Source: a candidate division FCPU426 bacterium
Lineage (GTDB): Bacteria; Oederibacteriota; Muellerivitia; Muellerivitales; Muellerivitaceae
Length of the DNA: 64,000 nucleotides
Direction of reading: 5' to 3'
Assembly (NCBI GenBank): GCA_963738405.1
Contig: CAVTWJ010000010.1
Coordinates: 47,962 to 111,961 of the forward strand
The position numbers and the translations under genes are program-made. The first letter of the stretch is position 1. Every line of letters starts with the position of its first letter. The notes under the pieces were generated by a model. The model was not told where the DNA came from. It saw only the letters and a list, made by a program, of their open reading frames with translations, and ran no database searches. Positions 12,672 to 34,417 of this stretch are shown here, one piece after another.

Positions 12672-14912
12672 ATGCCTGAGACCCCCCGTGAAGTTAAGGT
12701 CAGTTACAGCAAAAAAACCGCCCTATGGATGACGGCGGGAATTGTCTTTTTCCTCTGCGTCTGTAATTTCTTTAAGATTCAGTTTTTCCAATCCCTTGAG
12801 AATAAAACTATTGATTTCCGTTTTGGCGTTCGGGGTACCCGCTTGCCGGAAGCCCCTATCCGCATCCTGGCTGTCGATGAAAAGAGCCTGCGGGAAGTGG
12901 GCCAATGGCCTTGGCCGCGGGCTATTCACGCTCAATTGGTGCGGCAGCTTAAGGATATGGGCGTCAAGTGCATCTTTTACGACGTTTTCTTCCCTGAACC
13001 CGAACGTACCCAAGAAAAGATGCTCAATCAGCTGGAAACGGTTTTGAATTCGGCCATCCAGGGCAACAGCAAGACCGCCACTAAAATTAGAGAATCCATG
13101 CTTTCCGATATCAAACGGTTCCAGGAAACACAGAACGGGGATAAGGAATTCGGTCAAGCCATTCAGGATACCGGAAATGTCTTTTTGCCCATCGAACCCC
13201 TGATCAATGGCAAGGAGGGGCGCACTCCCAATGAGGAATCCTTACATGTAACCGGGGCCCAACTTTTTGGAGGATTCACCAATAATTTTCTGACAAGCCA
13301 ATCCTTGATCATTTCCATTCCCGACCTTCAGGAACATGTGGCCGACTCTGGGCATACCCGTTATTTTCCCGATCCTGACGGTATCTATCGCTATTACCCC
13401 ACGGTCATGAATTACTCGGGTGTATTGATTCCCAATTTGTCCTTGCAGGTGGCCCGGGTTTTCCAGGGAATCAAGGATCCGGTCAAGGTTTACGATGGGG
13501 ACCACGTGGCGGTTGGGAAAAGCAATATCCCGATATTGGACTTGGGTTTCGCCCTGATTAACTTTTGCGGGCCACGGGGAACCTTTATGACTATCTCGGC
13601 CAGCGATGTTTTGAATGGCCGAGTTTCGCCCGATACTTTGAAAGGATCCATCGTTTTGATCGGGGCCACGGCTGATGGCCTTTACGATTTGCGTCCAACC
13701 CCCTATACCCGAGCCTCGCCGGGAGTCGAAATCAACGCCAACATCATTGAAAACGTACTGGACAACCATTTCTTGACCTTAGCGCCGGATTATTTGAAAT
13801 ACATCCTTGTTCTTTTCCTAGCCTTGATTATTTGGTACCTGGTTCCTCGCGTGACACCCACCCAGGGTTCCATATGGTTCGGGGCTTTGCTGGTAATTTA
13901 TACCGTCCTGTCCTGCTTGGTGTTTAGTTATATGGGTTTGATCATTAATTTGACCTATCCCGTACTTGCTCTCATGCTCACATTCCTCGCCCTCACGACC
14001 TACAAGTTCCGCACCGAAGTGCGACACAGCCGTTACATGAAACAGATGTTCCAGAGCATGGTGACGCCTAAGGTTGTTGAGGAAATTTTGAAAATGCCGG
14101 CTGGTATCGAACTGGGCGGTGAAGAAAAAGAACTGACGGTCATGTTCTCGGACATCCGGGGGTTCACCACTTACTCAGAAAAGCACACTCCCCACGAGGT
14201 CGTGGAGGTTCTAAACGAGTATCTCACCCAGATGACCAACATGATTTTCCAAACGGAGGGCACCCTCGACAAATACATCGGAGACGCCATCATGGCCTTC
14301 TGGGGAGCCCCGACCGGACAGCAGGATCACGCCTATCGCGCCTGCTCCACCGCCCTCGGGATGGTGGATCTTTTACACACAACCCTTCATCCCAAATGGG
14401 AAAAAGAGGGCAAGGAAAAACTGGAAATCGGTATTGGGGTCAACACTGGCCCCATCGTCGTGGGGTTCGTGGGTTCCCAGGCCATCAAGAATTACACCCT
14501 TATCGGGGACGCGGTGAACTTGGGGAGCCGCTTGGAGGGTACCACCAAGGAATACAAGGTAGAAATCATCATCGGCGAACAGACATTTGAGCACGTTAAG
14601 ATGGACATGCTTTGCAGGGAATTGGACCTGATTCGGGTCAAGGGCAAGCTGCAGCCCATCCGTATTTACGAGGTCGTGGATCACCGGCTCAAGGCTGTCG
14701 GAGCCAAGGAGTTAAAGGTGAACACCTTCAACGAGGGGCTCAGCTATTACCGCCTCCAGCGCTGGGATGACGCCATCAAGCGGTTCAAGGTCTGCCTGGA
14801 ACTGGACCCGCACGACGGGCCTTCCAAGATATTCATCGACCGATGTCAGCACCTGAAAGAAGACCCTCCTAAGCCCGATTGGGACGGGGTTTTCATCATG
14901 AAGACGAAATAA
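12672..14912 (+). CDS. CHASE2-domain class III adenylate/guanylate cyclase with C-terminal TPR-like tail
   Basis: VDEKSLREVGQWPWPR, DPDGIYR and PGVEINANII (CHASE2); three TM helices; MFSDIRGFT, DKYIGDAIMAFWGAP, YTLIGDAVNLGSRLEG; ends WDGVFIMKTK. Confidence 0.95.
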   Translation: MPETPREVKVSYSKKTALWMTAGIVFFLCVCNFFKIQFFQSLENKTIDFRFGVRGTRLPEAPIRILAVDEKSLREVGQWPWPRAIHAQLVRQLKDMGVKCIFYDVFFPEPERTQEKMLNQLETVLNSAIQGNSKTATKIRESMLSDIKRFQETQNGDKEFGQAIQDTGNVFLPIEPLINGKEGRTPNEESLHVTGAQLFGGFTNNFLTSQSLIISIPDLQEHVADSGHTRYFPDPDGIYRYYPTVMNYSGVLIPNLSLQVARVFQGIKDPVKVYDGDHVAVGKSNIPILDLGFALINFCGPRGTFMTISASDVLNGRVSPDTLKGSIVLIGATADGLYDLRPTPYTRASPGVEINANIIENVLDNHFLTLAPDYLKYILVLFLALIIWYLVPRVTPTQGSIWFGALLVIYTVLSCLVFSYMGLIINLTYPVLALMLTFLALTTYKFRTEVRHSRYMKQMFQSMVTPKVVEEILKMPAGIELGGEEKELTVMFSDIRGFTTYSEKHTPHEVVEVLNEYLTQMTNMIFQTEGTLDKYIGDAIMAFWGAPTGQQDHAYRACSTALGMVDLLHTTLHPKWEKEGKEKLEIGIGVNTGPIVVGFVGSQAIKNYTLIGDAVNLGSRLEGTTKEYKVEIIIGEQTFEHVKMDMLCRELDLIRVKGKLQPIRIYEVVDHRLKAVGAKELKVNTFNEGLSYYRLQRWDDAIKRFKVCLELDPHDGPSKIFIDRCQHLKEDPPKPDWDGVFIMKTK

Positions 14913-15123
14913 AGCTTTTGAATTGAGGCTGTTTTTAAGTTTTTTCCCGCCTTTTGAGTTTTTACCCCCCAAAACCTGATTTTTTTCTAAAATTTAAAAG
15001 ACGATTGAATTTGTGTAAATATTGATTTTATCTATCTTTTGGTCGTGATTCCCCGAATCCTTGTCATGTACAATGCCGCCTCAACAGACAAGCGGGCTTT
15101 TGCAATGGCCCCAGGGGAGCCTG

Positions 15124-18100
15124 ATGAAAGTTCGCCATTGGGCGCTTTTATCTTTTGGTATCGTTTTTATTTTCGCGGCCTTCATCGGCTGCAATAACCG
15201 CTCGGCCTCGCCGGTTGCTCCTACACGAAACGCCAACCTTAATGTAGCCGTTCCTAGAACCCAGGAACTCCAGGCCAGCCTTTTAAGCTCCACCAGCGAC
15301 ATCCTTCTTTACAAAGCTACCACCTCAGGTCAGGCCGTCACAGGATCGGCGGGACCTTTCAATGACCAGACTGGTTCGGGCTCGATTAATTTTTCGGTGG
15401 ATCTACCAAGTTCTGGGACTTGGCTTATGGCGGTGGAGCTTATTGCCGCTTCAAACCAACAGCCTTTGGCCTTAGGCGCAGCTCAGTTTGACGCTGGAAG
15501 CGTTTCGGGTGGTGTCACGCTCGACCTGGGGTCGGTATCCAGAAATTGTTATCAAACTGATACTTGGATGGATCCGCTTGGGTCTTCTTTTTCCTTCTTG
15601 ACTGATACACTTTTTACTTCGCTAAACTCGGGCGATATTAATATCGTCCCATTCGGCGCCGGTTATCAGATTCAGGCGGTTGCCCCTGCTCGGATCGAAT
15701 ATCTTGGTAATGGGCCGCTGGTTAATTTTGCCTCAGCTCCCGCGACTGAAACAAACACCGCTTCTTCTGTTTCGAAGATGACCGCTGGGGCCGCAGTTTC
15801 GATTCTGCAGTCGGGGGACGTTTACTGCGTTCTCTTATCAGGCGGTGGACACGCATGGATGCAGATCAGCAACCCCGGCAATGCCACAACAGGACCTTCT
15901 TTTCGTTTTCGGGTCAACGCGACACTTCCTTATTACGCCTATTATCAAACTTCTGCTGATATATCGGGCGTGTGTCTGACACCCCTGAACACCCCCACTT
16001 CCACCGCCACCTTCTCGCCGACTCCAACGATCACCCCCACGGTGACCCCAACCCCCAGCTATACCCAGACGCCCCTGCCGACATCGACGCCTACCTCTAC
16101 GAACTCGCCGACTTTAACCTCTTCGCCGACCGACACATGGACTGTGACCCCCACGCCTTCCATCACCGACACTCCCTCTTCGACTCCCACGCCGACGATT
16201 ACGCCTTCTCCCTCGCCAACTAATAGCCCCATACCAACTTCCACCCCGACGGAAACCCTTACTTCCACGGCGACCAACACGCCAACCGTTACCGGGACTT
16301 CGACTTCGACCGTTTCGCCGACCTTTACCCTGACCAACACGCTCACCTTTTCCTCGACGCAAACCTCAACATCGACCGCCACCGTTACGGGAACCGCCAC
16401 GCTTACCCAAACACTTACTTCCACCCCGACGGGGTTATTTACCTCGACGATGACAAGTACCCCGACGAATACACCCACCTATACAGCCACCCCAACGACA
16501 ACTTCGACTTCTACCTTCACTCAGACCAACACTCTGACCTCAACGTCGACCTCCACCGCGACAAGCCAATTCACCTTCACGCAGACATCGACTCCGACAA
16601 ACACTCTATCCGCAACAACCACCGACACCTTAACGAGCACTTTGACAGCGACACCAACCGATACTTTGACGACCACAGCCACATTTACGCAAACTCAGAC
16701 GCCTACTGCGACATTGACCAATACGGTAACGGCTATCGCGACCTCAACGTCCACTGCGACCCCGACGAACACCCTGACTGCGACGCCCACCGTTACATCG
16801 ACGAACACAGCCACCGTTTCGCAGACTCAAACCGTTACGTCCACTTTAACCAATACGGCAACGGCTACTTCGACCTCAACGTCCACTGCGACCCCGACGA
16901 ACACAGCCACATCCACTCCGACCCAAACACCTACTTCAACGGCGACCGCTTCGGCGACAGATACCCCAACCTCCACACTCACAACGACTCCGACGGCCAC
17001 CCCGACCTCAACATTAACCACAACTCCAACAAGCACGCCAACTTTCAGTTTTACGGCCACATCCACAACCAATGGCACCTCAACCCCAACTTTGACTCCT
17101 ATTGCGGGAGTAATTGACATTACCAACAATATCGATGGCGCCCCGGTTCCTGGCATCACCACCGGTGGACAGGATAATTACAGCCAAACGGTCACCTTCT
17201 GGAATGGGACTTCGAGCTTATCCTCCAGCTATGACAACTATTCCAGTAGCGGTGCCGCAACCGCCCTCTATGGCCAGGGCGCTCCTGACCAGGCCTACCA
17301 GTTCACGCTGGCTTCTCCTAAAAATCTCTTCGTCAACCTTTGCGGCGCGAACTACGACTCGGTCCTATACCTTCGGAAGACGCTGAATGACCCGAATTCG
17401 CTGGTCGCCATTAACGACGATTCCGATTTCTGCGCCACAACCTCTTCCAGCCTCGTAACGGGAACCCTACCGGCGGGCACGTACTACCTGATCGTGGATG
17501 GTTTCGCGGCGGGCTACCATGGCTCTTACTCCTTAACCCTCTCCACCTTCGCTCCCCCCTGCCAGTTGACGCCTCTTTCTTCACCCGTTACCAGCAACCA
17601 GCAGGTCAATACGGCGGATACCAGCAATTTCACCAACCCGGTCGTTTTAGGCTCGGTTGGGGCCGGATCGGACCTGGTAGGGGCCGGCACGGTCAATTAC
17701 TTCACCAATTTCGCCAATACCTGGGCCTTCACGCCTTCCATGACCGGGGCCTACCAGATTTCGTTGGATTGTTTCGACGATGGAACGGGCAAGGCGAGGG
17801 TAGGTTATGACCTTCTTGAATCCGATGGAGAGGGCGGAGTTTCCTTTGTCGATGTCTCCCTCGACGGTGATCCGTTAGACTCGTTGATCGAAAATCTGAC
17901 TGCGGGAAATACCTATTACATCGCCGTTTACGCCTGGAATGAAGGCGCTCCTGACGCCGATTACCACCTGATCATCAAGGGTTTGGGCAGTACGGCCACG
18001 CCCACGATCACGCCCACCGCTTCTTCAACACCCACAGAGACCATCACTCCTTCCGCTACCTCGATTCCGACCGCCCAGAGCCCAGTCACCCTCAATATTT

Positions 18101-21100
18101 CCGGCGGCGGAGCCACGGTCACGGGCAATACCATTGGCATGGCGGACAGTTATAACCAGCCGGTGAGCCTCTGGAATAGTATCGGAGGCGTTACCTACGA
18201 TTACGGCGCGGGAGCGCCGGACACTGCCTACGCTGTCAACGTCACGAACCCGGAAAGCCTCTTCATCAACCTTTGCGGGGCACAGTTTGACTCTGTTGTT
18301 TATGTAAGGTTTGGTTCACCCACGGGTCCGACCGTCTCCGTGAACGACGATTCGGACTACTGCAACAGCCCCTCTTCCAGCCTGGTGACCGGAACCCTGG
18401 TGCCGGGGATCTACTACATTATCGTGGATGGATTCGGTCCCGGAAGCTATGGGCCCTTTACCCTGGCTGTTTCCACCTTTAACCCCGTTTGCGGCCTGCC
18501 CACCCAAACCCTGCCGACGCCGGTTGTGAACCCGCAATCCGGTGATAGCGCGGATGACGTCAATTTCACCAATCCGGTGGATCTGGGTGTGGCTTTAAGC
18601 GGGGGCGATGTGGTGGGGTCGGGCAACGTGAATTATTACTTCAACCATGTGCAAACCTGGAGTTTCGCGGTATCGCAGTACGGTAACTATACGGTCTCCC
18701 TGGATTGTTTTGATGACGGAACGGGCAAGGCTAGGGCGGGCTTTGACCTGCTTCAAAACAATGAGGGTTCCATCTCCTTTTTGCAGGCTTCGAACGATAA
18801 CGATCCCTTGGACCAGGTGACCTATTACCTTATCCCTGGAGTCACTTATTACGTCGCGGTTTACGCTTTCGGTGAGGGGGCTCCCAGCGCGGATTATCAC
18901 CTCTTGGTCACGCCCCAGGGCGGCGCCCCGGTCATCCAGGATGTCAGTTCTATCATCGGAACCGGGAACGCAATTTCGGGCAGTACGGAAGGTGCAAACG
19001 ACAACAATAACCAGCCCGATTCATCCGGAACTCCCTGGGGCCAATACGGGCCGGATGTGACCTACCAGTTCGTGCCCCCGCAGACGGGCGAGTATTTCAT
19101 CAATATGTGTAATGTCAATTTCGACTCGGTTCTTTATTTACGAACCAACCCGACCGATCCAGCCTCGGTTGTGGATTTGGATACCTTCGGGAATTATTGC
19201 GACAACGGGCAGGGCACCGCGATCGCCACGGGAGTCCTGAACCAGGGGGTCACCTATTACCTGATCGTGGATGGAAATGATGAAGCGGGGAACTATTCCT
19301 TCACCATTGCGCCTTTCACTCCCCAGTGCGTCCTGACGCCTGTTTCCACTCCCGTCACTTTCACGGGACCGGCCAATACCTCCTTCAACCCAGACTTGGC
19401 CAACGCGCGGGACTTAGGCGATTTGAGCGCCGCGGGCCAGGACGCGACGGGGGTAGGCAACGTCAATTACGAATACAACGGCACCAATACTTGGCAGTTT
19501 GAGGTCACGGTTCCCAACCAGGTCTTCAATCTTTCCACGGATTGCTTTGATGACGGAACTGGAAAGAATTTGACGGATGTGGGCATTTGGAGCAACAGCG
19601 ATGGGCTTCAATTCATCGCGGGTCAGTCGCAATATTCCCCGATCAACCAAGCCTCCGTCACTTTATCGACGGGAACCTATTACATCACCGTTGAATCGGA
19701 CAATGACGGGGAGGACGGCAATTACCGCCTGGTGGTCCAGAACGTCACGGGGTTAAACACTCCCACCGTCACCCAAACCCCGACCGTTACGCCGACGGCC
19801 ACCCCCGCAGGCGTTCCCGACGTCAGTTACGCAATCGGGCAGGGAACCGTCATCTCAGGCAATACGGCGGGCGGGACGGACCATTACAACCAAAACCTCA
19901 CCAACGGCTTTAACGGTGCGGTGGATTACGGCGCCGGCGCCCCCGATGTGGCTTATCAATTCGTGGCGCCTCAAACCGGCGAGTATGTCATCGACATGTG
20001 CAACGCGGGTTTCAGCGCGGTTCTTTACCTGCGGACCAGCCTTACCGATCCGGCTTCCATGACCGATTTAAGTAATCAGTCTGATTATTGTTATAACGTG
20101 GGTTCCGGTTCTGGATATTACGCGTCGATCACGACAAGCACCCTGACCCAAGGTGTGACCTATTACCTGATCGTGGATGGTTATGGAAGCGGCGATTACG
20201 GGAATTACGGTTTTACCATCGCCCCATTTACACCTGTTTGCTATCTCAACACGGTTTCCACCCCGGTTACTTATACAGGCTTGCCGAATGATAACGACGG
20301 CTATGAGCAAATGACCGACTCGGACGCTTCTGCCGCCGTAAATCTGGGCACGGTGACCACCGACGCAGTTGGGGTGGGAACCCTGAACTGGGCGCTCAAC
20401 GGCACGGAGGTCTGGCAGTTCACCGCATCCGTGAGCGGCAATTATGCCATTTCCACGGATTGTTTCGACGACGGCACGGGACAGGACTACGCCGACCTTT
20501 ATCTTTGGACCTACCAAGACGGGCTGACCGAAACCAATTATTCTTACAACTATCCGCTGAATCAAATGGTGGTCTATTTAAACGCAGGCCAGACCTATTA
20601 CGCGGAAGTCCAACCCGATTACGACGGCCAGGATGGGAATTACCGATTAGTCGTTCAAAATCTCACGGGTTTTAATACCCCGACGCCACTCGATACGCCC
20701 ACCCCTATGCCTTCTCCCACGCCCACCCCCTCAAGCTTCCGGGTCATCCCGGCGAGTTACAGCGGATATACCGACAGCCAAGGCAATTATTGGAATGGAG
20801 GGGCCGACAGCGACATACCTGGCTATTCAGGTCCAGGTGGATTTTCGAATGACAATAACATCCCGATTTTTGGCACCAAAGACCCGACACTTTATGACGA
20901 CTATTACGACAATGGACCGGCGGCTCAAAACTACGTTTTTAACGTGGCTCCGGGTACCTACCAAACCACCCTCAAATTCACGGATCTCAGCGGGACTGCG
21001 GTAGGTGCAAGGGAATTCAATGTCTTTATCAACGGGTCGAAAGTAATAAGCAACCTGGACATTTATTCCGAGGTCGGCGGAAATGCAGCAGACGACAAGG

Positions 21101-24100: not shown

Positions 24101-27100
24101 TGACGCAAGGAGTGACCTATTACCTGATCGTGGACGGCCTCAACAGCTATGATTATGGAACCTACAGCCTGTCCATCTCCCATTTCACGCCTCTGTGCAC
24201 TTTAAGCCCCACTTCCACACCCGTCCTTTATACGGCGCCAGCGAATATTACCTATTATCCCGACTATGCCAACGCGGTTGATTTGGGAACGGTCTCGACG
24301 GGCGGGGACGCGGTGGGAACAGGCAACGCGAACTACAACTTCAATTACACGAATACCTGGAAATTCACGGTTGGAACCAACGGCGGAACCTATGCCTTCT
24401 CTGCGGATTGTTTTGACGACGGTACGGGCAAAAACTACGAAGACATTACGGTTTATGACGGTAATCCCGAGGATTTGAACAGTCCTATTGCCCAATCTTA
24501 TTACCAGACGCCCTTAAACCAACTGGAGATACAGAATCTCCCGGCGGGAACCTACTATATCGCCGTTCAATCCGATGATGACGGCCAGGACGGGAACTAT
24601 CGCTTGGCGGTCCAAGGGTTGCAGGCATTAACCATCACGCCAACGCCGACCATTACGCCGTCGCCTACGGATAGTCCGACCGATTCTCCTACCGTCATTT
24701 CAACTGAAACTTTAACGGTCACACCTGCCAACTCAGTTACGGTTTGGCGGGAAACGACGGGCTACCTCGCGGCTTCCTTGACCGATCACCTGGGTAATGT
24801 TTGGACACCGGATACGACAGTGGGTAATTACAGCCCATTAGGCGGCAGCACCTATCTAGGTGGAGTTGTATTTGGAACACCGGATTCCACCCTTTATCAA
24901 AACCCCCGTTTTGCCAGCCCCACTTTGACCTATTCCTTCCCGATTGAGCCAGGCTCATACCAGGTGACCCTTAAATTTGCCGAGGAAAACCCCACCTATT
25001 GGGCAGTGGGGGCGAGGGTGTTCAATGTGTCCGTTATCGGAAGTTCGACCCAGACTCTATCTAATCTTGACGTATTTGCTGAAGTGGGAGGCCAAGCACC
25101 CGATGACAAGGTCTTTGACAGCGTTTCTCCGGATGCGAGCGGGAACATCACGGTTCTATTGGGCGGTGGGACCAACTTCCCCATGATTTCCGCCATTCAA
25201 ATCATTCCCCAGGGCTCTGCCGTTACGCCGACCCCGACGCCCCTATTAACCCCTTCCGCCAATTGGAGGATCATCGCCGGGGCCAGCCCCTACAGCCAAC
25301 TATCAGGGACCAATCTAAAACTTCCCTATATTGATTCCCATGGCAAGCCTTGGATGGGCGACGCTGGATTTAGCGGCGGCGAGGGGCTTGGCTCCGGCGC
25401 CTATTTTGCCTCAAGTGACTTAACCCTTTATTCATTCGAAAGGGTGGGTTATGGCGTTCCCTTCAGCTACACCTTCCCTGTTCCGACGGGACAGCAGTAC
25501 CAGTTGGATCTGAAATTCATGGACTACTACCATAATGCCGATGAAAACGTGGTCGTGAACGGAGTCACGGTTCTATCGAATTTCCAACCGGGTAATGTTG
25601 GCGGCTACAGCTTCAACACCCCCATCGACCAGGTTTTCAATAACATTTCACCCGTCGGTGGAAACATCCAAATCCAATTCTTCCCGGTATATCCCGACTA
25701 TTACCCCAATTATCCGGTGGAGGTGAACGCCATCCAGATTATTCCCCAGCCGGTTCTGATTTCGCCCACTGTAACGCCTACCTGGACGATCACGCCCAGC
25801 CCCACCAATACTCCCAATCCATCGGTAACAACCACCCCCACCTCCACTGCTACCATTTCATCGGGGATACCCATGGTGCTTGTGGATGGGGCCCCCGTGA
25901 GTGGAACAACCGCCGGTGGAACGGATAGCTATAGCCAACCTGCCAGCCTTTGGGACAGTTCCAACGGGGTCACCTATAACTATGGCGCGGGCGCTCCGGA
26001 CTCGGTTTACCAGTTCCATTTGAACTCGGCCCAGAGCGTTTTCATTAATCTTTGCGGGGCGGCTTTTGATTCTGTGGTTTACGTTCGTACCAACCCCAAT
26101 GATCCCTCCACCACCATGGCCTTGGACGATGATTCGGAATTCTGCCACGGCACCTCTTCCAGTCTGGTGACGGGCACCCTTCAGCAGGGGACCTATTATG
26201 TGGTTGTGGATGGGTTTACGGCGGGTGATTTTGGAACCTATTCCTTAAGCTTATCCAGCTTCAATCCAATCTGCACCCTAACGCCTATTTCCACACCAGT
26301 GGTCAACTGGCAAACCAATAATTCGGCCGACGATTCCTATTTCTCAAATACTGTCAACTTGGGTTCGGTCACGAGCGGCCATGACCTGGTTGGGATGGGA
26401 ACACTCAATTATTATCTAAACCACGTGAATACCTGGCAGTTCTCGGCTGGGACGGACGGCTCTAACTATACGATTTCGCTGGATTGCTTTGACGACGGAA
26501 ATGGCAAGGCCCGGATGGGTTTTGACCTTTACCAGGCCGCTTACAATAGCTTCGACAGCATTTACTCTTACCAATTGATCGCATCTTCAAGCAACGGCGA
26601 TCCCTTGGACCAGATCACCCAGAATCTCCCGGCCGGCAATTATGTTGTTGCGGTTTATGCCATCGACGCGGAAGCCCCGAGCGGGGATTATCACTTGGTG
26701 GTCCAAGCCGGTGCGGCCCCCACGCCCCTGCCCACGGCTACGGTCACTCCCACTCCCGTGGTGGTCAACCATTACCCCGACATCACCTCGTATATTGACA
26801 GCGGGAACCCCGTCACCGGCGACACGACTGGCCTGCCGGACCACTACAACCAGGTTGTTATGGAAGCCTCTGAGGGCGGCGATGCGCATGCCGCTGGAAA
26901 TACCAATGGCAGGCCAGTGACCTTTGGCGCGGGTTCACCGGATGTGGTTTACCAATTCACTCTCCACTCTGCGGAAAGCCTTCATATCAATGCCTGTCAA
27001 ACCTATTACTTCAGCTCAGTTGTTTATATAAGGACGAATCCGGATGACCCCAGCACCACGGTGGCTTTTGGAAATGATTACAACAACTGTGAGGAAGCGA

Positions 27101-29607
27101 ATTTCGTAACCGGAACTCTTAAGCCGGGAACCTATTACTTGATACTGGATGGGGACGGATATTACGGTCAATATACCTTTTCGCTTTCAACCTTCCATCC
27201 CCTGTGCGCAGTCTCGCCTGTTCCTAATGTGACGCCCGTACCGAATGTTACTCCTAGCGGCGACAGTACTTATTTCTCCAAACCCACCTATTTGGGAACG
27301 GTTTCCAGCGGTACGGGGGTCATTGGGCCTGGAACGCTTAATTACTACTTTAATCCAACCGAAACCTGGCATTTTAAGGCCGGGACCAACGGCGGAAACT
27401 ACGCACTTTCCCTGGATTGTTACGATGATGGAACGAATCAGGTGGTGTTTGACTTTTCACTCTTTGACGCACTTCACAATCAGATTGGGCATTATCAAGG
27501 CGGTGGCGGCAGTTATCCCAACCAAGAATTCAGGACCCTGCCCGCGGGCGATTATTACGTGGCGGTCTCGGCTACGAATGAAAACTACCCCAGCGGAGAC
27601 TATCACCTGATCATCCAGGGCGGCGCGGTCGCCACTCCGACGGCAACTCCCACCCTGACGCCGACCCCCACCCCGACGCCTATCCCTGGAGGTCCCAAGG
27701 GGGCTTGGAGCGCGCCCGTAGGGTTTATCGCAGTGAACTCGGCTGGAACCACCGTTTACCTCTCCCACAATTTCGGGGTGGATAACCTTAATTTCGATAA
27801 ATATGTGCGAGTTTACACATCCACCAGCGGTATCAATTATTCCCAGTCCGCGTCATGGGGATACTTTGGCAGCACTTATGGCGGAACTTATAGTTCCTGG
27901 CAGGATCCCAATGGCCTTGCAGTCGATTCTTCTGGAAACGTCCTTGTGGCAGACAATGACGTAATTCGTAAATACAATTCCAATGGTGTCGCGCTGGGTT
28001 CCGTGGGCAATGACGATGGTTATTACAATTACGGTGGATATTTCACCTTGGCGAGTGATGTGGCTTTGGACTCGTTTGGCAACATCTATGGTGCCCAGGA
28101 CCGGACCAGCTACGGTACGGTGCAACTTTTCAATTCTTCGGGAATCTTTCAGGGAATTTTGGGCTCGTATCTGGCTTATGGACAGGTAGGGAATTTCGAT
28201 TACCTGCCATCGGTGGCCGTGAACGCATCCGCCTCCTCTACGATCGTTTACGAGGCGGCTTTGGGCGATTCTGTAATCAATGTTTACCAGGTAGTTCCGG
28301 GTTCTTCTTATAAAATCTTCAATTCTCTCGGCCAATGGGGGGCGGGAGCGGGTTCCTTTAGCGTCGGGTCCTTGGCTGTGGCTCCGGCAGGGAGCCCCTA
28401 TGCCGGATTCCTTTACGTCTCAGACACCGCGAACAATCGGATGATGGAATTCGACCCTTACGGAAATTTCGTGGGCCAATGGGGCAGTTACGGAACCGCA
28501 CCTGGAGAGTTCAACTACCCAGGTGGAGTTGCGGTGGATGGCGCTGGCAATGTTTACGTGGCGGATGTTAATAACAACCGCTTCCAGAAATTCGCGCCAC
28601 CTATACCTCAATCTATTATCCCGACACCGACTGGAACTCCGACAAATACTCCTACTGTCACCTCGACTCCTACCCCGTTTGGACTTCCAACAGCGACCAC
28701 CACACCTTTGGTTTATAGTTCCGCGGTGTTTGAGAGCGGGCTTCCTTATCCGCAAGGAGTAGCGCTTGATTCCAGTTCGAATCTTTATGTCGTCAACGAC
28801 CAGCCCAGTTCCGGGCAATATTACCTGAAAGTATTTTCGCAATTTGGATCATTGCTTAACTCTTGGCAGTCCTTTTCTTCCAGCTTCTTAGATTTCCCGG
28901 ACGCAATCGCGGTTAATGGCGCGGGTACTTCCATTTTTGTGGGCGACAGTAGCGGAAGCAACGAGCTGTATCTTTTGAACAGCGGTGGAACCGTTGTGAA
29001 TAGTACGGGGGGGTTCAGCTTTATCGGTGGTTTGGCTTTAGATGTCGCGGCTACCAATCTTTATGTAGCGGATGATTCGGCCCATAGCCTTAAACATATC
29101 AGCCTCAGCAATTCAACCACCGTAGCCTTTGGGACCTGGAACAATAGCCAGGGCTTGGGCTATATCCAGGCACCCATTGGAGTGGCGGTAGATAACAGCA
29201 CCAACTGTAACGGCGGACCCTGTGTTTACTCGATCGATTATGGAAACGAAAATGTTCAAAAATGGGACACCAGTGGAAACCCCATCACCTTTTGGGGTGG
29301 TCCGGACTTGAACTACAAGAACTCGAGCTCGGGAAATGGAATGTTTTACGCCCCCTCCGCCATCGCGGTGGATGCCAATACGAGCTGTAACGGAGTGCCC
29401 GGACCCTGTGTCTATGTCTCGGATAACGGCAACCCGAATAATTACCATTGGATCGAGATATTCGATTCCAATGGCGGCTTCATACAACAAATCTCAACTA
29501 GTTATTATCCGCAGGGGTTGGTGGCACTGCCTAATGCGACGGGTTTGCCCGGTGCGTTCTATGTGGCTGATTTTGGCGATGGAGCGATTTATAAATACAC
29601 GCCTTGA
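15124..29607 (+). CDS. Giant (~4,830 aa) surface lipoprotein: N-domain, Thr/Pro stalk, 9 PPC-like bidomain repeats, 4 malectin-like domains, 2 NHL propellers
   Basis: Uninterrupted ORF; ATG 15124 with SD GGGGAG; lipobox FIGC; repeated GTYYLIVDG and DCFDDG motifs; malectin-like YQVTLKFAE...RVFNV; NHL motif PGGVAVDGAGNVYVADVNNNRFQKF. Confidence 0.9.
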   Translation: MKVRHWALLSFGIVFIFAAFIGCNNRSASPVAPTRNANLNVAVPRTQELQASLLSSTSDILLYKATTSGQAVTGSAGPFNDQTGSGSINFSVDLPSSGTWLMAVELIAASNQQPLALGAAQFDAGSVSGGVTLDLGSVSRNCYQTDTWMDPLGSSFSFLTDTLFTSLNSGDINIVPFGAGYQIQAVAPARIEYLGNGPLVNFASAPATETNTASSVSKMTAGAAVSILQSGDVYCVLLSGGGHAWMQISNPGNATTGPSFRFRVNATLPYYAYYQTSADISGVCLTPLNTPTSTATFSPTPTITPTVTPTPSYTQTPLPTSTPTSTNSPTLTSSPTDTWTVTPTPSITDTPSSTPTPTITPSPSPTNSPIPTSTPTETLTSTATNTPTVTGTSTSTVSPTFTLTNTLTFSSTQTSTSTATVTGTATLTQTLTSTPTGLFTSTMTSTPTNTPTYTATPTTTSTSTFTQTNTLTSTSTSTATSQFTFTQTSTPTNTLSATTTDTLTSTLTATPTDTLTTTATFTQTQTPTATLTNTVTAIATSTSTATPTNTLTATPTVTSTNTATVSQTQTVTSTLTNTATATSTSTSTATPTNTATSTPTQTPTSTATASATDTPTSTLTTTPTATPTSTLTTTPTSTPTFSFTATSTTNGTSTPTLTPIAGVIDITNNIDGAPVPGITTGGQDNYSQTVTFWNGTSSLSSSYDNYSSSGAATALYGQGAPDQAYQFTLASPKNLFVNLCGANYDSVLYLRKTLNDPNSLVAINDDSDFCATTSSSLVTGTLPAGTYYLIVDGFAAGYHGSYSLTLSTFAPPCQLTPLSSPVTSNQQVNTADTSNFTNPVVLGSVGAGSDLVGAGTVNYFTNFANTWAFTPSMTGAYQISLDCFDDGTGKARVGYDLLESDGEGGVSFVDVSLDGDPLDSLIENLTAGNTYYIAVYAWNEGAPDADYHLIIKGLGSTATPTITPTASSTPTETITPSATSIPTAQSPVTLNISGGGATVTGNTIGMADSYNQPVSLWNSIGGVTYDYGAGAPDTAYAVNVTNPESLFINLCGAQFDSVVYVRFGSPTGPTVSVNDDSDYCNSPSSSLVTGTLVPGIYYIIVDGFGPGSYGPFTLAVSTFNPVCGLPTQTLPTPVVNPQSGDSADDVNFTNPVDLGVALSGGDVVGSGNVNYYFNHVQTWSFAVSQYGNYTVSLDCFDDGTGKARAGFDLLQNNEGSISFLQASNDNDPLDQVTYYLIPGVTYYVAVYAFGEGAPSADYHLLVTPQGGAPVIQDVSSIIGTGNAISGSTEGANDNNNQPDSSGTPWGQYGPDVTYQFVPPQTGEYFINMCNVNFDSVLYLRTNPTDPASVVDLDTFGNYCDNGQGTAIATGVLNQGVTYYLIVDGNDEAGNYSFTIAPFTPQCVLTPVSTPVTFTGPANTSFNPDLANARDLGDLSAAGQDATGVGNVNYEYNGTNTWQFEVTVPNQVFNLSTDCFDDGTGKNLTDVGIWSNSDGLQFIAGQSQYSPINQASVTLSTGTYYITVESDNDGEDGNYRLVVQNVTGLNTPTVTQTPTVTPTATPAGVPDVSYAIGQGTVISGNTAGGTDHYNQNLTNGFNGAVDYGAGAPDVAYQFVAPQTGEYVIDMCNAGFSAVLYLRTSLTDPASMTDLSNQSDYCYNVGSGSGYYASITTSTLTQGVTYYLIVDGYGSGDYGNYGFTIAPFTPVCYLNTVSTPVTYTGLPNDNDGYEQMTDSDASAAVNLGTVTTDAVGVGTLNWALNGTEVWQFTASVSGNYAISTDCFDDGTGQDYADLYLWTYQDGLTETNYSYNYPLNQMVVYLNAGQTYYAEVQPDYDGQDGNYRLVVQNLTGFNTPTPLDTPTPMPSPTPTPSSFRVIPASYSGYTDSQGNYWNGGADSDIPGYSGPGGFSNDNNIPIFGTKDPTLYDDYYDNGPAAQNYVFNVAPGTYQTTLKFTDLSGTAVGAREFNVFINGSKVISNLDIYSEVGGNAADDKVFNNVIPVFNPSALAYQIQVQVGPANSGAPVIGAIQILPQSQTIATPTPTPTRGPSSTWRVIAGGASPYMTLPYTDSHGKSWIGDTDYQGGIFQASTNPGSISGTNDQILYQNTRMGNMINDTYYQPFSYSFPVPQGNYQVTLKFAETQYTYVGGRVFNVSINGNQAVTNLDVYSEVGENAADDKIVNNVTPDGTGHIKISFGPTSSSSNSNQVMVSAIQIVPEAGGFFPTATLTQTQTPTPTITPSPTPTSTPSGPAALDISGGGVTLTGQTTLGLPDIYNEPATAWLGASGYANYNYGVGAPDKLYTFTVGSGQAGQFFNINICDANFDSVLALHSGSPAGPTVALNDDSDFCGGTSSSLVTGPLAAGTYYLIVDGFQAGDAGAYTLKISTFTTTCSLSPTSTPVVSNQTSGVTVDDTTFTNPVTLTTPLTSGNDLTGLGVVNNYLNHVNTWMFTQASSGSCTISLDCFDNGTALGNSRVGFDVYDAYDDLIGSSADGDPLDQLVLDLNPGNYYVAVYAWDYGAPNANYRLVIQDGPIATATPTPTVTPTLTLNTTFTSTATITSTLMATPIPSFSPTPGVPADITSAINGAPVAGDTTGLEDDYSQPVSYWNGTDTSTQYLGAGAPDIAYQFSIDAGHAGESLFINICGASFDSVLYLRSGSPTGPLVAVDDDSEYCGASSNNGLSSSFVTGPLSAGTYYLIVDGYQSGDYGQFSLNLSTYNPPCSLNPTSTPIPNAEPSQDDNGFSQATNLGTVSIGTDTVGSGALGYFTNHVDTWHFHAGTDGGNYTLSLDCFDDGNNKARFGFDLYRLIKTNSYNSVPLSLVASSTDGDPLDQLVETLPAGDYYVAVYANDENAPSGNYHLVVQGGPVASPTPTITFTPTYTETPGGVIQDISSIISSGVTITGDTTNDVNNYTQAVTQYDGSSPYVFNTGLGPDAMYQFVPPSTGEYFINLCNASFDSVIYLRTNPTDSSSTIDLDQYSEYCSTTGSSIATGTLTQGVTYYLIVDGLNSYDYGTYSLSISHFTPLCTLSPTSTPVLYTAPANITYYPDYANAVDLGTVSTGGDAVGTGNANYNFNYTNTWKFTVGTNGGTYAFSADCFDDGTGKNYEDITVYDGNPEDLNSPIAQSYYQTPLNQLEIQNLPAGTYYIAVQSDDDGQDGNYRLAVQGLQALTITPTPTITPSPTDSPTDSPTVISTETLTVTPANSVTVWRETTGYLAASLTDHLGNVWTPDTTVGNYSPLGGSTYLGGVVFGTPDSTLYQNPRFASPTLTYSFPIEPGSYQVTLKFAEENPTYWAVGARVFNVSVIGSSTQTLSNLDVFAEVGGQAPDDKVFDSVSPDASGNITVLLGGGTNFPMISAIQIIPQGSAVTPTPTPLLTPSANWRIIAGASPYSQLSGTNLKLPYIDSHGKPWMGDAGFSGGEGLGSGAYFASSDLTLYSFERVGYGVPFSYTFPVPTGQQYQLDLKFMDYYHNADENVVVNGVTVLSNFQPGNVGGYSFNTPIDQVFNNISPVGGNIQIQFFPVYPDYYPNYPVEVNAIQIIPQPVLISPTVTPTWTITPSPTNTPNPSVTTTPTSTATISSGIPMVLVDGAPVSGTTAGGTDSYSQPASLWDSSNGVTYNYGAGAPDSVYQFHLNSAQSVFINLCGAAFDSVVYVRTNPNDPSTTMALDDDSEFCHGTSSSLVTGTLQQGTYYVVVDGFTAGDFGTYSLSLSSFNPICTLTPISTPVVNWQTNNSADDSYFSNTVNLGSVTSGHDLVGMGTLNYYLNHVNTWQFSAGTDGSNYTISLDCFDDGNGKARMGFDLYQAAYNSFDSIYSYQLIASSSNGDPLDQITQNLPAGNYVVAVYAIDAEAPSGDYHLVVQAGAAPTPLPTATVTPTPVVVNHYPDITSYIDSGNPVTGDTTGLPDHYNQVVMEASEGGDAHAAGNTNGRPVTFGAGSPDVVYQFTLHSAESLHINACQTYYFSSVVYIRTNPDDPSTTVAFGNDYNNCEEANFVTGTLKPGTYYLILDGDGYYGQYTFSLSTFHPLCAVSPVPNVTPVPNVTPSGDSTYFSKPTYLGTVSSGTGVIGPGTLNYYFNPTETWHFKAGTNGGNYALSLDCYDDGTNQVVFDFSLFDALHNQIGHYQGGGGSYPNQEFRTLPAGDYYVAVSATNENYPSGDYHLIIQGGAVATPTATPTLTPTPTPTPIPGGPKGAWSAPVGFIAVNSAGTTVYLSHNFGVDNLNFDKYVRVYTSTSGINYSQSASWGYFGSTYGGTYSSWQDPNGLAVDSSGNVLVADNDVIRKYNSNGVALGSVGNDDGYYNYGGYFTLASDVALDSFGNIYGAQDRTSYGTVQLFNSSGIFQGILGSYLAYGQVGNFDYLPSVAVNASASSTIVYEAALGDSVINVYQVVPGSSYKIFNSLGQWGAGAGSFSVGSLAVAPAGSPYAGFLYVSDTANNRMMEFDPYGNFVGQWGSYGTAPGEFNYPGGVAVDGAGNVYVADVNNNRFQKFAPPIPQSIIPTPTGTPTNTPTVTSTPTPFGLPTATTTPLVYSSAVFESGLPYPQGVALDSSSNLYVVNDQPSSGQYYLKVFSQFGSLLNSWQSFSSSFLDFPDAIAVNGAGTSIFVGDSSGSNELYLLNSGGTVVNSTGGFSFIGGLALDVAATNLYVADDSAHSLKHISLSNSTTVAFGTWNNSQGLGYIQAPIGVAVDNSTNCNGGPCVYSIDYGNENVQKWDTSGNPITFWGGPDLNYKNSSSGNGMFYAPSAIAVDANTSCNGVPGPCVYVSDNGNPNNYHWIEIFDSNGGFIQQISTSYYPQGLVALPNATGLPGAFYVADFGDGAIYKYTP
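15980..17100 (+). repeat. Thr/Pro/Ser low-complexity coding repeat (~370 aa)
   Basis: (T-x)n pattern; exact 34-bp duplication at 16739-16772 and 16871-16904. Confidence 0.9.
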
Positions 29608-29774
29608 AATATAGGGGTGTTATTCAATCGTTTGAGTTGGACTAGGGCTTTAAATGAGGGGTTTCTAGGTTCAAAAGACCGCTTTTTATTAAAGGAAACC
29701 CTTTTCATTGCCGGTTTTTTCTTTAAAATACGCCCCAAGTTGCAGTCGGGGCTTAATCCCTGAAAGGGGCCGTC

Positions 29775-30572
29775 ATGAATAGAATTTTGATTTTGACAAT
29801 ACTGATTCTGGTGCCGGTCGGACGACTTTGGGCCGTAACGGAGGCCATCTTTACCTCTGTTACTGGTAAGATCGAGATCAGGGGCCACGCCGGCCACAAG
29901 CTCCGGATTGCCCAAAAAGACACTACCGTAGTTGAAGGCGAACGTATTGTCGCCGGCGCGGACGGTCAAGCGACCCTGCAAACCTTTGATGGGTCCCAAT
30001 TGACAATCAGTCCCAATACCGATTTCTGGTTGGATAAACTCCAACAACCTGATCCCAATAATAAGATTATTCAATTCAAAATGATGCTGGGCCAGCTCTT
30101 CGCCAAGGTCACCAAGCTGGTATCGGCCAAGTCCTCATTCGAAATCAACGCCGGGGGCGTCATCTGCGGCGTTCGGGGAACTCAATACCAGGTCAAATTT
30201 GATCCCACCACCAACACCGTTTATTTGGGAGTTGTGGAGGGAACTGTTTTCACCACCTCAAACGGTCAAACGACCGATTGGGGCGCCGGAAGCAGTGCGG
30301 TTTTCCACAACGGAACCCCTTTAGGTGGTGGCAACAATGGAATACCCGGCGGCAATAATGGAAATAAAGGTGATAACGGAAACAATGGTCAAGGAAATGG
30401 CCAGGGGGATAATGGTGACAACGGTTCCCTTGGCTCTCTCCAAGACCTAAACGATCAATTCGGCGGAAACAATAACTCTAACGGCAACACGACTCTTACC
30501 GATCCGTCGGTGGAGGGTTCCATAAGGATCAATATCACCGCCAATATTCCTACCCAGGAAAATACGAATTGA
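29775..30572 (+). CDS. Periplasmic FecR-domain protein with G/N-rich tail
   Basis: Signal peptide; GERIVAGADGQATLQTFDGSQLTISPNT, FEINAGGVICGVRGTQYQV, VVEGTV. Confidence 0.9.
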   Translation: MNRILILTILILVPVGRLWAVTEAIFTSVTGKIEIRGHAGHKLRIAQKDTTVVEGERIVAGADGQATLQTFDGSQLTISPNTDFWLDKLQQPDPNNKIIQFKMMLGQLFAKVTKLVSAKSSFEINAGGVICGVRGTQYQVKFDPTTNTVYLGVVEGTVFTTSNGQTTDWGAGSSAVFHNGTPLGGGNNGIPGGNNGNKGDNGNNGQGNGQGDNGDNGSLGSLQDLNDQFGGNNNSNGNTTLTDPSVEGSIRINITANIPTQENTN

Positions 30573-30586
30573 AGGAGAAAAACATC

Positions 30587-31744
30587 ATGAAAAGTTTCTT
30601 TGCGGGACTTTCCCTCTTTTTACTCGTCCTTCCTGTCCAAGCCGGCCAATTCAGTATCGGAGCCATTTACGATGGTTGGAACAGCAACTATCTAACCCCA
30701 TTGACCGGATTAAACACCAATCAGGGTTCTGAATTTTGGGTCCCCATGGCTTTAAATCTGAATTTGGAAAAGGGATTTCAGGTTTATGGGCAGGGGTCTT
30801 TCGCGACTGCCTCTTACATTTTTCCGCCCGATCAGTCGGGGGCTAATGAGACGCTGAATTTGACAAATCTGACGGACTCAGTTCTCGGAACCGAGATTCA
30901 GTTCAAAAGTTTCGGCTATTCTTCGCTCCTTAATGTCAGTATCAATCTGCCGACGGGCGACCCAACCTGGGAAACGAAACAGATTGTGGCTATTATTCCC
31001 ACTGAGTTCATGGATTATCGCTACCGTGGTCGTGGGTTCGGTTTTAACGGCCTTTATGGGATCAGTTTCCCCATGGGAAAAAGTTCCATCGGTGCAGGTG
31101 TTGGTTACCTGCATTCGGGTTCCTTCGATGCGACCGGCGATTCGACCGCACCCCTGCAATTGGGTGATACGATGTTTTTGGCTTTCAACTTTGTTCAGCC
31201 GGGAACCGGCGGGTACAAGGAAATCGCCCGGCTTTCGGGTTATTACTCCTTTACGACTCAAATCGCCGGGGTTAACGAGTTTCAGCTTGGGACCAATGTG
31301 AATGCCTCTTATAGTTGGATTAATCCCCATGCCCTATCCGTTGATTTGGGAGCTCAGTTTTTCCTTCCCTCTCAAAGATTGAGTACAGATAACGTTTTGA
31401 CCACCGAATCCAATAATTACTACGCCCCGCGCTTTTACGTGGCTCCCAGTTATTCATTTGGAGATATCAACTTGTCCGCACAAGTGAAATATATCCTGCC
31501 CAATGATTATCCAGATACCTTTTCCGGTTCTGGCGTGAATCCAATGTATTTCGGCGGAGGTTGGCTTTTTGGAATCGGCCCTTCCTGGAAAGCTGCCCTG
31601 GATGACAAGTCGAGCCTCAATTTCTATGGTGCCTACGACTACATCGTTCAAAATAACGCCAATATTGATTCCACCGGAACCACCTTGGTTAACGCCACAT
31701 ACAATTATTGGATCATCGGCACGAACTACCAAATTAATCTCTAA
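30587..31744 (+). CDS. Putative outer-membrane beta-barrel protein
   Basis: Signal peptide; SD AAGGAG; alternating aromatic/hydrophobic strands; SINLPTG motif; C-terminal strand YWIIGTNYQINL. Confidence 0.75.
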   Translation: MKSFFAGLSLFLLVLPVQAGQFSIGAIYDGWNSNYLTPLTGLNTNQGSEFWVPMALNLNLEKGFQVYGQGSFATASYIFPPDQSGANETLNLTNLTDSVLGTEIQFKSFGYSSLLNVSINLPTGDPTWETKQIVAIIPTEFMDYRYRGRGFGFNGLYGISFPMGKSSIGAGVGYLHSGSFDATGDSTAPLQLGDTMFLAFNFVQPGTGGYKEIARLSGYYSFTTQIAGVNEFQLGTNVNASYSWINPHALSVDLGAQFFLPSQRLSTDNVLTTESNNYYAPRFYVAPSYSFGDINLSAQVKYILPNDYPDTFSGSGVNPMYFGGGWLFGIGPSWKAALDDKSSLNFYGAYDYIVQNNANIDSTGTTLVNATYNYWIIGTNYQINL

Positions 31745-31794
31745 TTCGTTATTCAGTCCCCGGGGAGCGGGTCTTAACCAAAGGAGACGGCTAA

Positions 31795-32814
31795 ATGAAA
31801 ATCGCATCGAATAAATTTTTTATCGCCTCGAGCCTGTTTTCAGTCCTGATTATGGTGATATGGGGCTGTAATGGTTCTCGTCCCTTGGCTCCCGCCCAAA
31901 ATGTCAATTTGGGCATTTCTTTGGCGCCCTCCAAGGATCTTCAAGCCAGCTTGCTGGGAACAACTTCGAACACCCTTCTCTGGAACTATCAAATCAACGG
32001 CCAGTCTGGGGAGCATGGCCAGGCGGGTCCCTTTTCCTCCAATGTCGGCGCCGGAAACGTTAATTTCTCAGTGAATCTGCCTGCGGGCGGTAAAAAGATA
32101 TTCTCCATCCAATTAAACGACGCCAATACTGGGCAGGACCTGGCGGTTGGTTCTGCTCTGATTGATCTGACGAACCCAACAGCGAATATGTCGGTAACCA
32201 TCGCCCTGGGATCGGTGGTTCGGGCCTGTTACACATTGAGCAATGCAGGGCTTTATAACTACTATGACTTGATTGACCATTTCATTCAGTACTATCCCCA
32301 GCAATCAGACCTGGAAGTGTATTACGGGGATACCAACTACTCATTGTGGGACGCAAACTATAACGCCACGATCGCATACTTGGGCAATGGGAATCTGGTC
32401 GATTACGACTATGTTCCCTCGGATGATGTTTTTTCGTATTATTCTATTGAAACCAAATATGAGGTCCTGAATCCTTCCAGCGCGAAACCCACTCCTGTGC
32501 CGACTTACGGTGGCGGTTCCGCTCGAAAAAGCACCAAAGCCAGCACGGGACAAAATTTAGATCTAGAAACTGGGGATGTCTATTGCATTAAGTTGACCAA
32601 TCTTCCCGGGGATTATGCCTGGGTTCAGGTAACAGATTCCGGCAACCTCAATAATTCTGTCGGTCCCAGCTTTTGTTTCCGCATCAGCACCGATCCTTTC
32701 TATTCTTACTACCAGACCAGCGCGGACCTTCTTCAAAATTGCTCATGGGGCGGTACTAGCGGCAGCGGCAGCGGCGGTACCAGTGGGGGTGGCGGAAGCG
32801 GCGGCGGCGGTTAA
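31795..32814 (+). CDS. Lipoprotein paralogous to the N-terminal domain of the giant protein
   Basis: Lipobox IWGC; LQASLL, AGPF, NFSV.LP, LGSV.R.CY, YLGNG.LV, GDVYC, GPSF.FR and YYQTSAD are all shared; Gly/Ser tail. Confidence 0.9.
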   Translation: MKIASNKFFIASSLFSVLIMVIWGCNGSRPLAPAQNVNLGISLAPSKDLQASLLGTTSNTLLWNYQINGQSGEHGQAGPFSSNVGAGNVNFSVNLPAGGKKIFSIQLNDANTGQDLAVGSALIDLTNPTANMSVTIALGSVVRACYTLSNAGLYNYYDLIDHFIQYYPQQSDLEVYYGDTNYSLWDANYNATIAYLGNGNLVDYDYVPSDDVFSYYSIETKYEVLNPSSAKPTPVPTYGGGSARKSTKASTGQNLDLETGDVYCIKLTNLPGDYAWVQVTDSGNLNNSVGPSFCFRISTDPFYSYYQTSADLLQNCSWGGTSGSGSGGTSGGGGSGGGG

Positions 32815-33408: not shown

Positions 33409-33480
33409 ATTTTTTCTTCAAGTATGAGACCCCCTGATGGAAAATGCTCTGAAGCAATACATGATCAAGGCGGAATTGCC

Positions 33481-34389: not shown

Positions 34390-34417
34390 TCTCCTAATTT
34401 TAAACGATTAAGACGGT

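Follow-up and report, generated by a model that had tools for sequence, protein, structure and literature searches.

A FecR-domain adaptor, an outer-membrane barrel and exchangeable lipoproteins beside a CHASE2 cyclase: a possible tether through the outer membrane in a candidate division FCPU426 bacterium

A stretch of 64,000 nucleotides from a candidate division FCPU426 bacterium (assembly GCA_963738405.1, contig CAVTWJ010000010.1; hereafter the window) carries five genes that encode a CHASE2 cyclase, a giant lipoprotein, a FecR-domain protein that we call the adaptor, an outer-membrane (OM) barrel and a small lipoprotein (Table 1). A sequence-only reading had picked them out as a candidate trans-envelope sensing system. 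Positions of the open reading frames (ORFs) and Pfam confirmed that they are five consecutive genes on the forward strand, with gaps of 211, 167, 14 and 50 bp in that order. Pfam recognised CHASE2 (E 1.7e-57), Guanylate_cyc (1.9e-30) and TPR in the cyclase, malectin, NHL and PPC families in the giant lipoprotein and FecR (2.5e-11) in the adaptor, and gave no match for the barrel or the small lipoprotein. Both lipoproteins begin at a lipobox Cys and have in common the ~270-aa domain already noticed in them (33% identity over 318 columns, E 4e-45), hereafter the N-domain; the longer one, put at ~4,830 aa, measures 4,827 aa from its ATG. The host genome is diderm (Omp85 match, E 2e-57) and encodes two Lnt-sized CN_hydrolase proteins and nine cyclic-nucleotide (cNMP)-binding matches. 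Promoter and terminator scans of the cluster stayed at about chance level, giving no support for a single transcript, and no CRP-like site was found near it (13 matches in the window vs 17.9 expected, by the general consensus).

Table 1. Features of the locus, in window coordinates
Feature	Position	Strand	Basis
CHASE2 class III cyclase, 746 aa, inner membrane	12672..14912	+	Pfam, hydropathy, catalytic motifs
Giant lipoprotein, 4,827 aa, candidate surface adhesin/antenna	15124..29607	+	ORF, Pfam, lipobox
N-domain of the giant, residues 22-290, lipobox Cys23	15187..15993	+	33% identity to small lipoprotein
Thr/Pro/Ser-rich stalk of the giant, residues ~295-660	16006..17103	+	composition
FecR-domain adaptor, 265 aa	29775..30572	+	Pfam, hydropathy, alignment
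Conserved tail at the C-terminus of the adaptor (residues 221-265), putatively entering the barrel lumen with its first half	30435..30569	+	alignment, profile
Amphipathic 'donor' strand of the adaptor, residues 248-259, pairing predicted within the Ig-like domain of the lipoprotein	30516..30551	+	model
16-stranded beta-barrel, 385 aa, no Pfam/NCBIfam family, long conserved loop 3	30587..31744	+	AF2 model, searches
Small lipoprotein, 339 aa, N-domain alone	31795..32814	+	AF2 pLDDT 86.8, structure comparison
Strand A (first strand) of the small lipoprotein, hydrophobic pattern like the adaptor tail strand	31900..31929	+	model, alignment

Judged from gene neighbourhoods, the conserved unit is not the five genes that had been taken as one system but a three-gene cassette of adaptor, barrel and N-domain lipoprotein, most copies of which have no neighbouring cyclase. 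Only 3 of the 24 family genomes (G000, G002, G003) showed precisely this arrangement of five genes, two of them for lipoproteins. The host genome has three cassettes, on C10, C2 (with a ~3,950-aa lipoprotein) and C20 (with a 350-aa one), which together hold all four N-domain proteins found. Across 41 genomes, the barrel was found in 24/24 same-family relatives, 2/2 members of family f9 and 0/14 others. Among 78 genomes of the phylum with at least 85% completeness, barrel and N-domain profiles match the identical 24, bearing out the expected co-occurrence of homologues, although these relatives are not independent and the other 54 genomes count as 'not found' rather than absent. We sampled the context of the cassette in 80 regions and five further loci, which contain 56 near-complete barrel ORFs (one from a duplicate locus). 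The FecR gene lies directly upstream of 53 of them, the other three being at contig starts or broken, and an N-domain lipoprotein accompanies 52 (three without, one undecidable). Frameshifted or split cassette genes (cyclase, barrels, long lipoproteins) occur in G002, G024 and G063 (L038, L041, L049, L143, L145, L146), reflecting either decay or sequencing errors.

The adaptor, composed of a signal peptide, the FecR domain, a Gly/Asn-rich linker and a conserved tail, holds what is new here: a FecR protein whose flexible linker leads to a conserved tail resembling the first strand of a lipoprotein. Across cassettes, the low-complexity linker spans 15-121 residues and the tail 35-63 residues, ending in an amphipathic strand in which three positions are hydrophobic in every row having a residue. 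This strand and strand A of the lipoprotein follow a common alternating hydrophobic pattern that ends in Pro. A tail profile built from 42 cassettes retrieves exactly the three cassette adaptors in the host genome, which is partly so by construction; on adaptors not used to build it, it detects 11 at E < 0.001 and two more at < 0.01.

Over the 42 cassettes, pairwise identity of the tail correlates with that of the barrel and with that of the lipoprotein (r 0.89 each); for the FecR domain, though part of one chain with the tail, the corresponding values are just 0.43-0.45. Between the two barrel subtypes, identity falls to 18% for the tail and 24% for the lipoprotein (40-42% within subtypes), whereas the FecR domain stays at 44% (45-48% within); subtypes were set on the barrel tree, leaving out four rows (two with truncated FecR, two from f9). 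FecR-domain divergence follows CHASE2 divergence instead (rho 0.58, 274 pairs). In two natural fusions (L044, L060), the FecR domain sits at the periplasmic N-terminus of the barrel, and two orthologous cassettes without a lipoprotein (L051, L076) have lost the terminal strand of the tail but retain its first half, which counts as one event. Extended adaptors (769-782 aa, with repeat-filled linkers) or adaptors with two FecR domains also keep the tail (L034:10679-13027, L136:4609-6918, L060:6834-8237). Separately, an orphan FecR-domain gene among response regulators, with no barrel near (G000:C12:103552-104376, minus strand), contains a stretch like the first half of the cassette tail that the tail profile does not detect.

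The barrel belongs to no family found by Pfam, NCBIfam or PDB sequence searches. Its AlphaFold2 (AF2) model (pLDDT 87.4, pTM 0.83) has 16 strands, counted by DSSP, which upholds the earlier assignment as a beta-barrel, and its loops of 6-30 residues alternate with turns of 2-5. The nearest solved folds are 16-strand OM barrels, namely PelB (Z 20.0, root-mean-square deviation (rmsd) 3.5, 260 aligned), BcsC (18.8), PgaA (18.7) and CdiB (18.3), at 8-10% identity. Atlas look-alikes at 0.97 include Gemmatimonadota and Thermodesulfobacteriota, and one cluster is 16% Phenol_MetA_deg. A profile search for distant barrels gave two weak extra matches alone, one named from a Zixibacteria metagenome-assembled genome, and a scan of genome contigs yielded 16 close loci. 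Membership in the COG4313/Phenol_MetA_deg/FapF group was considered and rejected, as PF13557 matched 0 of 45 family members and the barrel has 16 strands vs 12 in that group.

In the model of the small lipoprotein, the N-domain is a transthyretin/immunoglobulin (Ig)-like sandwich (mature residues 10-118) followed by an HmuY-like one (116-280). The structural neighbours of the first are ExsB (Z 9.8, rmsd 2.1, 93 aligned) and the Vibrio alternative pilotin (8.8), with type V pilins at about 8 (Mfa2/Mfa3, Z 7.6-8.1), and those of the second are HmuY (Z 8.7, rmsd 3.9, 123 aligned) and BfrB (8.5); these Z scores are middling and reveal no function. Neither Pfam (0 of 70 N-domains), NCBIfam nor PDB sequence searches returned a family, Foldseek gave nothing at E 0.001, and an Atlas match at 0.76 to PEGA clusters is a lead only. 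Among 143 representatives (E 0.001, a few weak), N-domain proteins range from ~270 to ~4,800 aa, many being N-domain only, with no stalk; 21 of 31 long members scanned have Pfam matches, mostly to leucine-rich repeat (LRR) or NHL-type propeller families. In the giant, the N-domain and stalk are followed by nine diverged two-domain repeats (PPC-like), four malectin-like domains and two NHL-type propellers, and in the three genomes of the same genus its position is held by LRR proteins of 1,425-1,589 aa. At the level of the genes, these C-terminal antennae are exchangeable between relatives. Many of the 40 longest ORFs of the host look secreted and are rich in Thr-Pro-Thr tracts; the N-domain is present in only two of them, so there are further routes of anchoring.

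We folded the barrel, the adaptor and the N-domain of the small lipoprotein together, with the lipoprotein as the scored partner. The median ipSAE was 0.72, against 0.00 and 0.00 with the partner swapped and 0.32 with the barrel swapped; at least 79% of contacts recur from run to run, and partner pLDDT is at least 73. Of 157 solved pairs 116 reach the score mark, as do 2 of 215 mismatched ones, counts that apply only roughly to three chains with an alignment of their own. The model supports the earlier proposal that the barrel docks the lipoprotein; of the confident interfaces that proposal would entail, the one between the lipoprotein and the barrel plus adaptor is found, in the sole complex folded. 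Seven of the eight long loops of the barrel take part in contacts and none of its seven short turns does, which places these contacts on the extracellular face by the usual rule for outer-membrane proteins. The tightest pairs join adaptor residues 253-257 with mature lipoprotein residues 65-68 (antiparallel) and 109-114 (parallel), the expected error of the best being 0.7-1.0 A, while mature residues 10-28 lie outside the confident interface. The paired position is presumably the first-strand slot of the transthyretin-like sandwich, given the usual topology of that fold. Since the tail pairs in that slot and residues 10-28 stay outside, we read the model as donor-strand exchange of the type-V-pilus kind, with the lipoprotein predicted to lie as a lid on the outer loops of the barrel and the tail strand predicted to sit within it. 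A sequence search of the PDB returned no similar complex.

In the type V pili of Bacteroidia, the lipidated anchor strand gives way to a donor strand (PMC13655056). The likeness would be a lipoprotein with a transthyretin-like N-domain whose first strand is replaced by the C-terminal donor strand of another chain; here, however, the donor would be a periplasmic adaptor, no donor strand was seen on the lipoproteins and there is no sign of a polymer. The N-domain lipoproteins have no sequence match in the PDB; a lipobox is present and the structural Z scores to pilins reach the values given above. Protease-triggered strand exchange finds no support: K/R occupies the candidate type-V cleavage position in 23 of 42 sequences, both window copies having Gln, no conserved cleavage site or gingipain was found, C11 peptidases were not found and the search for C25 was silent, its controls included.

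The cyclase comprises an N-terminal transmembrane (TM) segment, a periplasmic CHASE2 domain, a TM cluster, the catalytic domain and TPR, by Pfam and hydropathy. It is the single CHASE2 match in the host genome, and no solved relative of its CHASE2 domain was found in the PDB at E up to 1. Among 26 homologues, the first and second metal-Asp/Lys positions are intact in all, and the Thr/Asn/Arg positions in 25, one being frameshifted. By the general rules that give these residues their catalytic meaning in class III cyclases and tie some of them to base specificity, Lys and Thr at the base-specifying positions indicate ATP as substrate, and we predict an active adenylyl cyclase. In the 24 family genomes with a full CHASE2, the gene lies directly upstream of a cassette in 20; in the remaining four, it is once followed by a lipoprotein and then the contig end, once undecidable and twice unlinked (G004, G008). 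Either barrel subtype can hold the cyclase-adjacent position.

None of 18 CHASE2 loci from other families has the cassette barrel or the N-domain in the flanks retrieved, and in two of them (L091, L095) a FecR gene adjoins the cyclase gene and precedes one for a protein of ~785 aa, which in one case weakly matches a barrel. Other families of the phylum also have CHASE2 cyclases of a second type with a different input module (L102:9733-11105, L103:4611-5980, L105:10408-11879), followed by a secreted protein of ~170-200 aa and one of ~290 aa (M48 peptidase-like in L102).

We hypothesize that adaptor, barrel and lipoprotein form a single outer-membrane complex. The N-domain would be a lid over the extracellular loops of the barrel, bearing an exchangeable C-terminal antenna (none, LRR, NHL, or malectin/PPC arrays; ~300 to ~4,800 aa). 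The folded FecR domain would remain in the periplasm, the linker and tail would run through the pore, and the last strand would lock into the Ig-like domain of the lipoprotein, probably in the slot of strand A. With the end of the tail outside and the FecR domain in the periplasm, as the fusions imply, the tail has to cross the membrane, most simply via the lumen. The outcome would be a continuous polypeptide tether from antenna to donor strand, pore, linker and FecR stopper. Cyclase linkage and FecR conservation suggest that this stopper also contacts the sole CHASE2 adenylyl cyclase; several cassettes may feed one cyclase, and engagement or pulling of the antenna may alter cAMP. We infer the threading, the displacement of strand A, the FecR-CHASE2 contact and the nature of the signal from these data. 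A tether through the pore that anchors exchangeable antennae and couples them to the cyclase is the reading we tentatively favour, at little short of an even chance. Its more specific form, a 'pull-cord' in which adhesion force or ligand engagement is passed mechanically through the threaded, strand-locked tether to the cyclase, is possible and distinctly less probable. The interpretation first given to the locus is partly supported; it did not foresee that, in the model, the FecR protein touches the lipoprotein directly by its C-terminal strand.

Several observations weigh against such a coupled tether. Most cassettes have no cyclase nearby, two genomes have it unlinked, one cyclase-linked cassette (L057 in G015) lacks an adjacent lipoprotein, and the cyclase-cassette linkage is largely one inherited locus rather than a set of independent events. 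At least five lipoprotein genes (L127, L129, L130, L133, L144) have no barrel in the flanks retrieved. Threading and strand displacement are drawn from the contact list of a model and from the usual transthyretin-like topology, and the prediction may contain an artefact, an exchange of two amphipathic strands that look alike; noise in mean-field covariation over 197 N-domains (effective 161) kept strand A from being placed. The segment encoding the tail neighbours the barrel gene in the DNA, so recombination within the low-complexity linker could mimic co-divergence without contact. The constancy of the FecR domain may reflect constraint on the fold alone, and the FecR domain of the C2 cassette is 39% identical, the same as a non-cassette paralogue at 39%. 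Finally, the FecR-domain Clr target SMc02177 of S. meliloti is not required for signal perception, as stated in the accessible part of PMC5498481.

Given a possible role of the FecR domain as a retention stopper, anchoring without signalling is a live rival, which we consider unlikely but the best placed of the alternatives. Here the cassette would serve for display: the FecR domain would be a stopper provided in trans, the tail would keep the adhesin on the pore, and the cyclase would lie next to it through co-regulation or shared history, as the majority of cassettes without a cyclase and the two unlinked genomes would allow. The FecR-family profile has as its sole significant PDB match, over its first ~65 positions, the periplasmic plug of an adhesin, MpIBP RIN (5IX9, E 7.4e-6). 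However, the lipoproteins already carry a lipid anchor, so that a second needs a reason, and many have no antenna at all. Moreover, the cyclase link persists though the neighbouring cassette type changes, and the pairing of CHASE2 with FecR recurs with other barrels in the phylum (L091, L095) and, by the accessible parts of PMC9239204 and PMC5192318, in other phyla.

An export or assembly machine is improbable. The barrel would translocate the lipoproteins in the manner of Slam or FapF, with the tail as a transient chaperone strand or gate and the cyclase monitoring export; orphan lipoprotein genes could then be served in trans. The best structural neighbours are indeed export barrels, but their Z values at such low identity may mirror strand number alone. 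The Atlas link to the COG4313/Phenol_MetA_deg group, to which FapF belongs, points the same way. FapF is described as a polypeptide exporter in PMC5557850. Yet Pfam finds no TPR, POTRA or DUF560 domain on the 385-aa barrel, one homologue (P0050) being TPR-fused; export would be obstructed by a tail in the lumen, and the barrel, tail and lipoprotein diverge together in matched sets. Slam, or type XI, exporters combine an N-terminal TPR region with a 14-strand DUF560 barrel, and this assignment was rejected on the lack of both.

Slightly less probable still is a chemical input to the same complex, in which the effect of ligand binding to the HmuY-like domain or to a lectin-like antenna would travel along the tail with no force involved. 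The likeness of the second domain to HmuY and BfrB and the many stalkless members would fit, but Z of ~8 may be a common arrangement, and this reading does not account for giant, stalked antennae in the position nearest the cyclase. It is very unlikely that the complex model is an artefact and that the N-domain instead faces the periplasm and, like a pilotin, helps the barrel to assemble, for although the best fold matches of its first sandwich are pilotins, the modelled contacts all fall on long loops, unrelated partners score 0.00, and LRR, malectin and NHL arrays of up to 4,800 aa suit a surface location.

Returning to the coupled tether, parts of it have precedents. Classical FecIRA was rejected: genome-wide match positions bear out the earlier remark that the cluster has neither an extracytoplasmic-function (ECF) sigma factor nor a TonB-dependent receptor, the nearest Sigma70_r4_2 match lying ~13 kb upstream, just beyond the window, and none of eight receptor matches in the genome being on this contig. 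The adaptor likewise has no anti-sigma cytoplasmic domain or TM helix, the hydrophobic stretch before its FecR domain being of the N-terminal signal type only. FecIRA resembles our proposal in that a FecR domain bridges the outer and inner membranes, but the output here is a cyclase.

Closer is the NsrA-CyaK/CyaD1/CyaD2-Clr relay of Sinorhizobium meliloti, in which the accessible text of PMC7529298 and PMC13001267 has the NsrA barrel as necessary for CyaK/CyaD signalling. Common to both would be an OM barrel upstream of an inner-membrane CHASE2 cyclase and a proteinaceous outside signal, with cNMP-binding proteins present in our host genome. Two features of such a relay were found, a CHASE2 cyclase with intact catalytic motifs and a genetically linked OM barrel (20 of 24 family genomes), and cassette and cyclase may together work like a split NsrA-CyaK relay. 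In contrast, NsrA as described there is one protein of 1,200 aa (barrel part residues 600-1200, PMC7529298) that serves three cyclases, whereas here several cassettes per cyclase each have a 385-aa barrel, a separate tailed adaptor and dedicated lipoproteins. We rejected the barrel as an NsrA orthologue, setting it apart by size alone (385 aa in total vs the ~600-aa barrel part described).

FecR-CHASE2 clusters are also of a known kind. The available parts of PMC9239204 and PMC5192318 describe, respectively, a Campylobacterota cluster of CHASE2 cyclase, FecR-domain OM protein, TPR protein and phosphodiesterase, and a Burkholderia operon of LysM-FecR protein and CHASE2 kinase. Both have a FecR-domain gene beside a CHASE2 sensor with no ECF sigma factor, as here, but those parts mention no such barrel family, tail or lipoprotein antenna. 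Retention modules of RTX adhesins offer the likeness for the stopper: in MpIBP (PMC5550230) and LapA (10.1101/198937), a related periplasmic domain is proposed to act as a plug at an OM pore, with a narrow segment crossing the pore and retaining a giant adhesin, the MpIBP RIN being too large for passage through TolC and so preventing release (PMC5550230). There, stopper and adhesin are one type I secretion system (T1SS) substrate in TolC, whereas here they would be separate Sec-exported proteins joined by a strand at a monomeric barrel. The adaptor itself was rejected as a retention module: it scores E 8.8e-5 and 22.7 bits against retention_LapA (NF033682), under the cut-off of 50, and is a separate 265-aa signal-peptide protein rather than the N-terminus of a T1SS adhesin.

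Some neighbouring genes deserve mention. Upstream of the cyclase, an ABC ATPase (window 9365-10347, plus strand) is split into two ORFs of 163 and 164 aa vs a single ~327-aa ORF in relatives, by frameshift or assembly error. Downstream of the cassette (window 32827-35194) comes MarC, separated from the small lipoprotein by 12 bp, along with an NAD kinase and a D,D-carboxypeptidase of the VanY type; ORFs of these sizes also trail the cassette in many relatives, and in G004, where the cassette is absent there, they directly follow the cyclase. A region of lower GC (window 59246-62001, plus strand), with a TraG/VirD4-like coupling protein and a 269-aa unknown, is a possible mobile element edge.

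In the open-access literature, we found no description of this cassette or of a FecR protein whose tail passes through a barrel. While FecR-CHASE2 clusters and NsrA-CyaK-like relays are already known, the specific tail mechanism would be near categorically new if confirmed. In the sections available, PMC5192318 gives the factors recognised by CHASE2 domains as unknown, and PMC7529298 and PMC13001267 describe no physical link between NsrA and CyaK. The cassette is small and modular (an N-domain-only lipoprotein, a 385-aa barrel, a 265-aa adaptor and one cyclase) and comes with residue-level predictions, so the question is testable by heterologous reconstitution. If the tether is real, the missing input of CHASE2 domains would be named, and FecR domains, RTX retention modules and type V strand exchange would be joined in one device. 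Many orphan proteins with a FecR domain might then also turn out to serve as stoppers or tethers, not as anti-sigma factors. For these bacteria, it would be a new route to anchor and swap giant surface proteins and possibly a new way for the cell to sense the surface to which it attaches.

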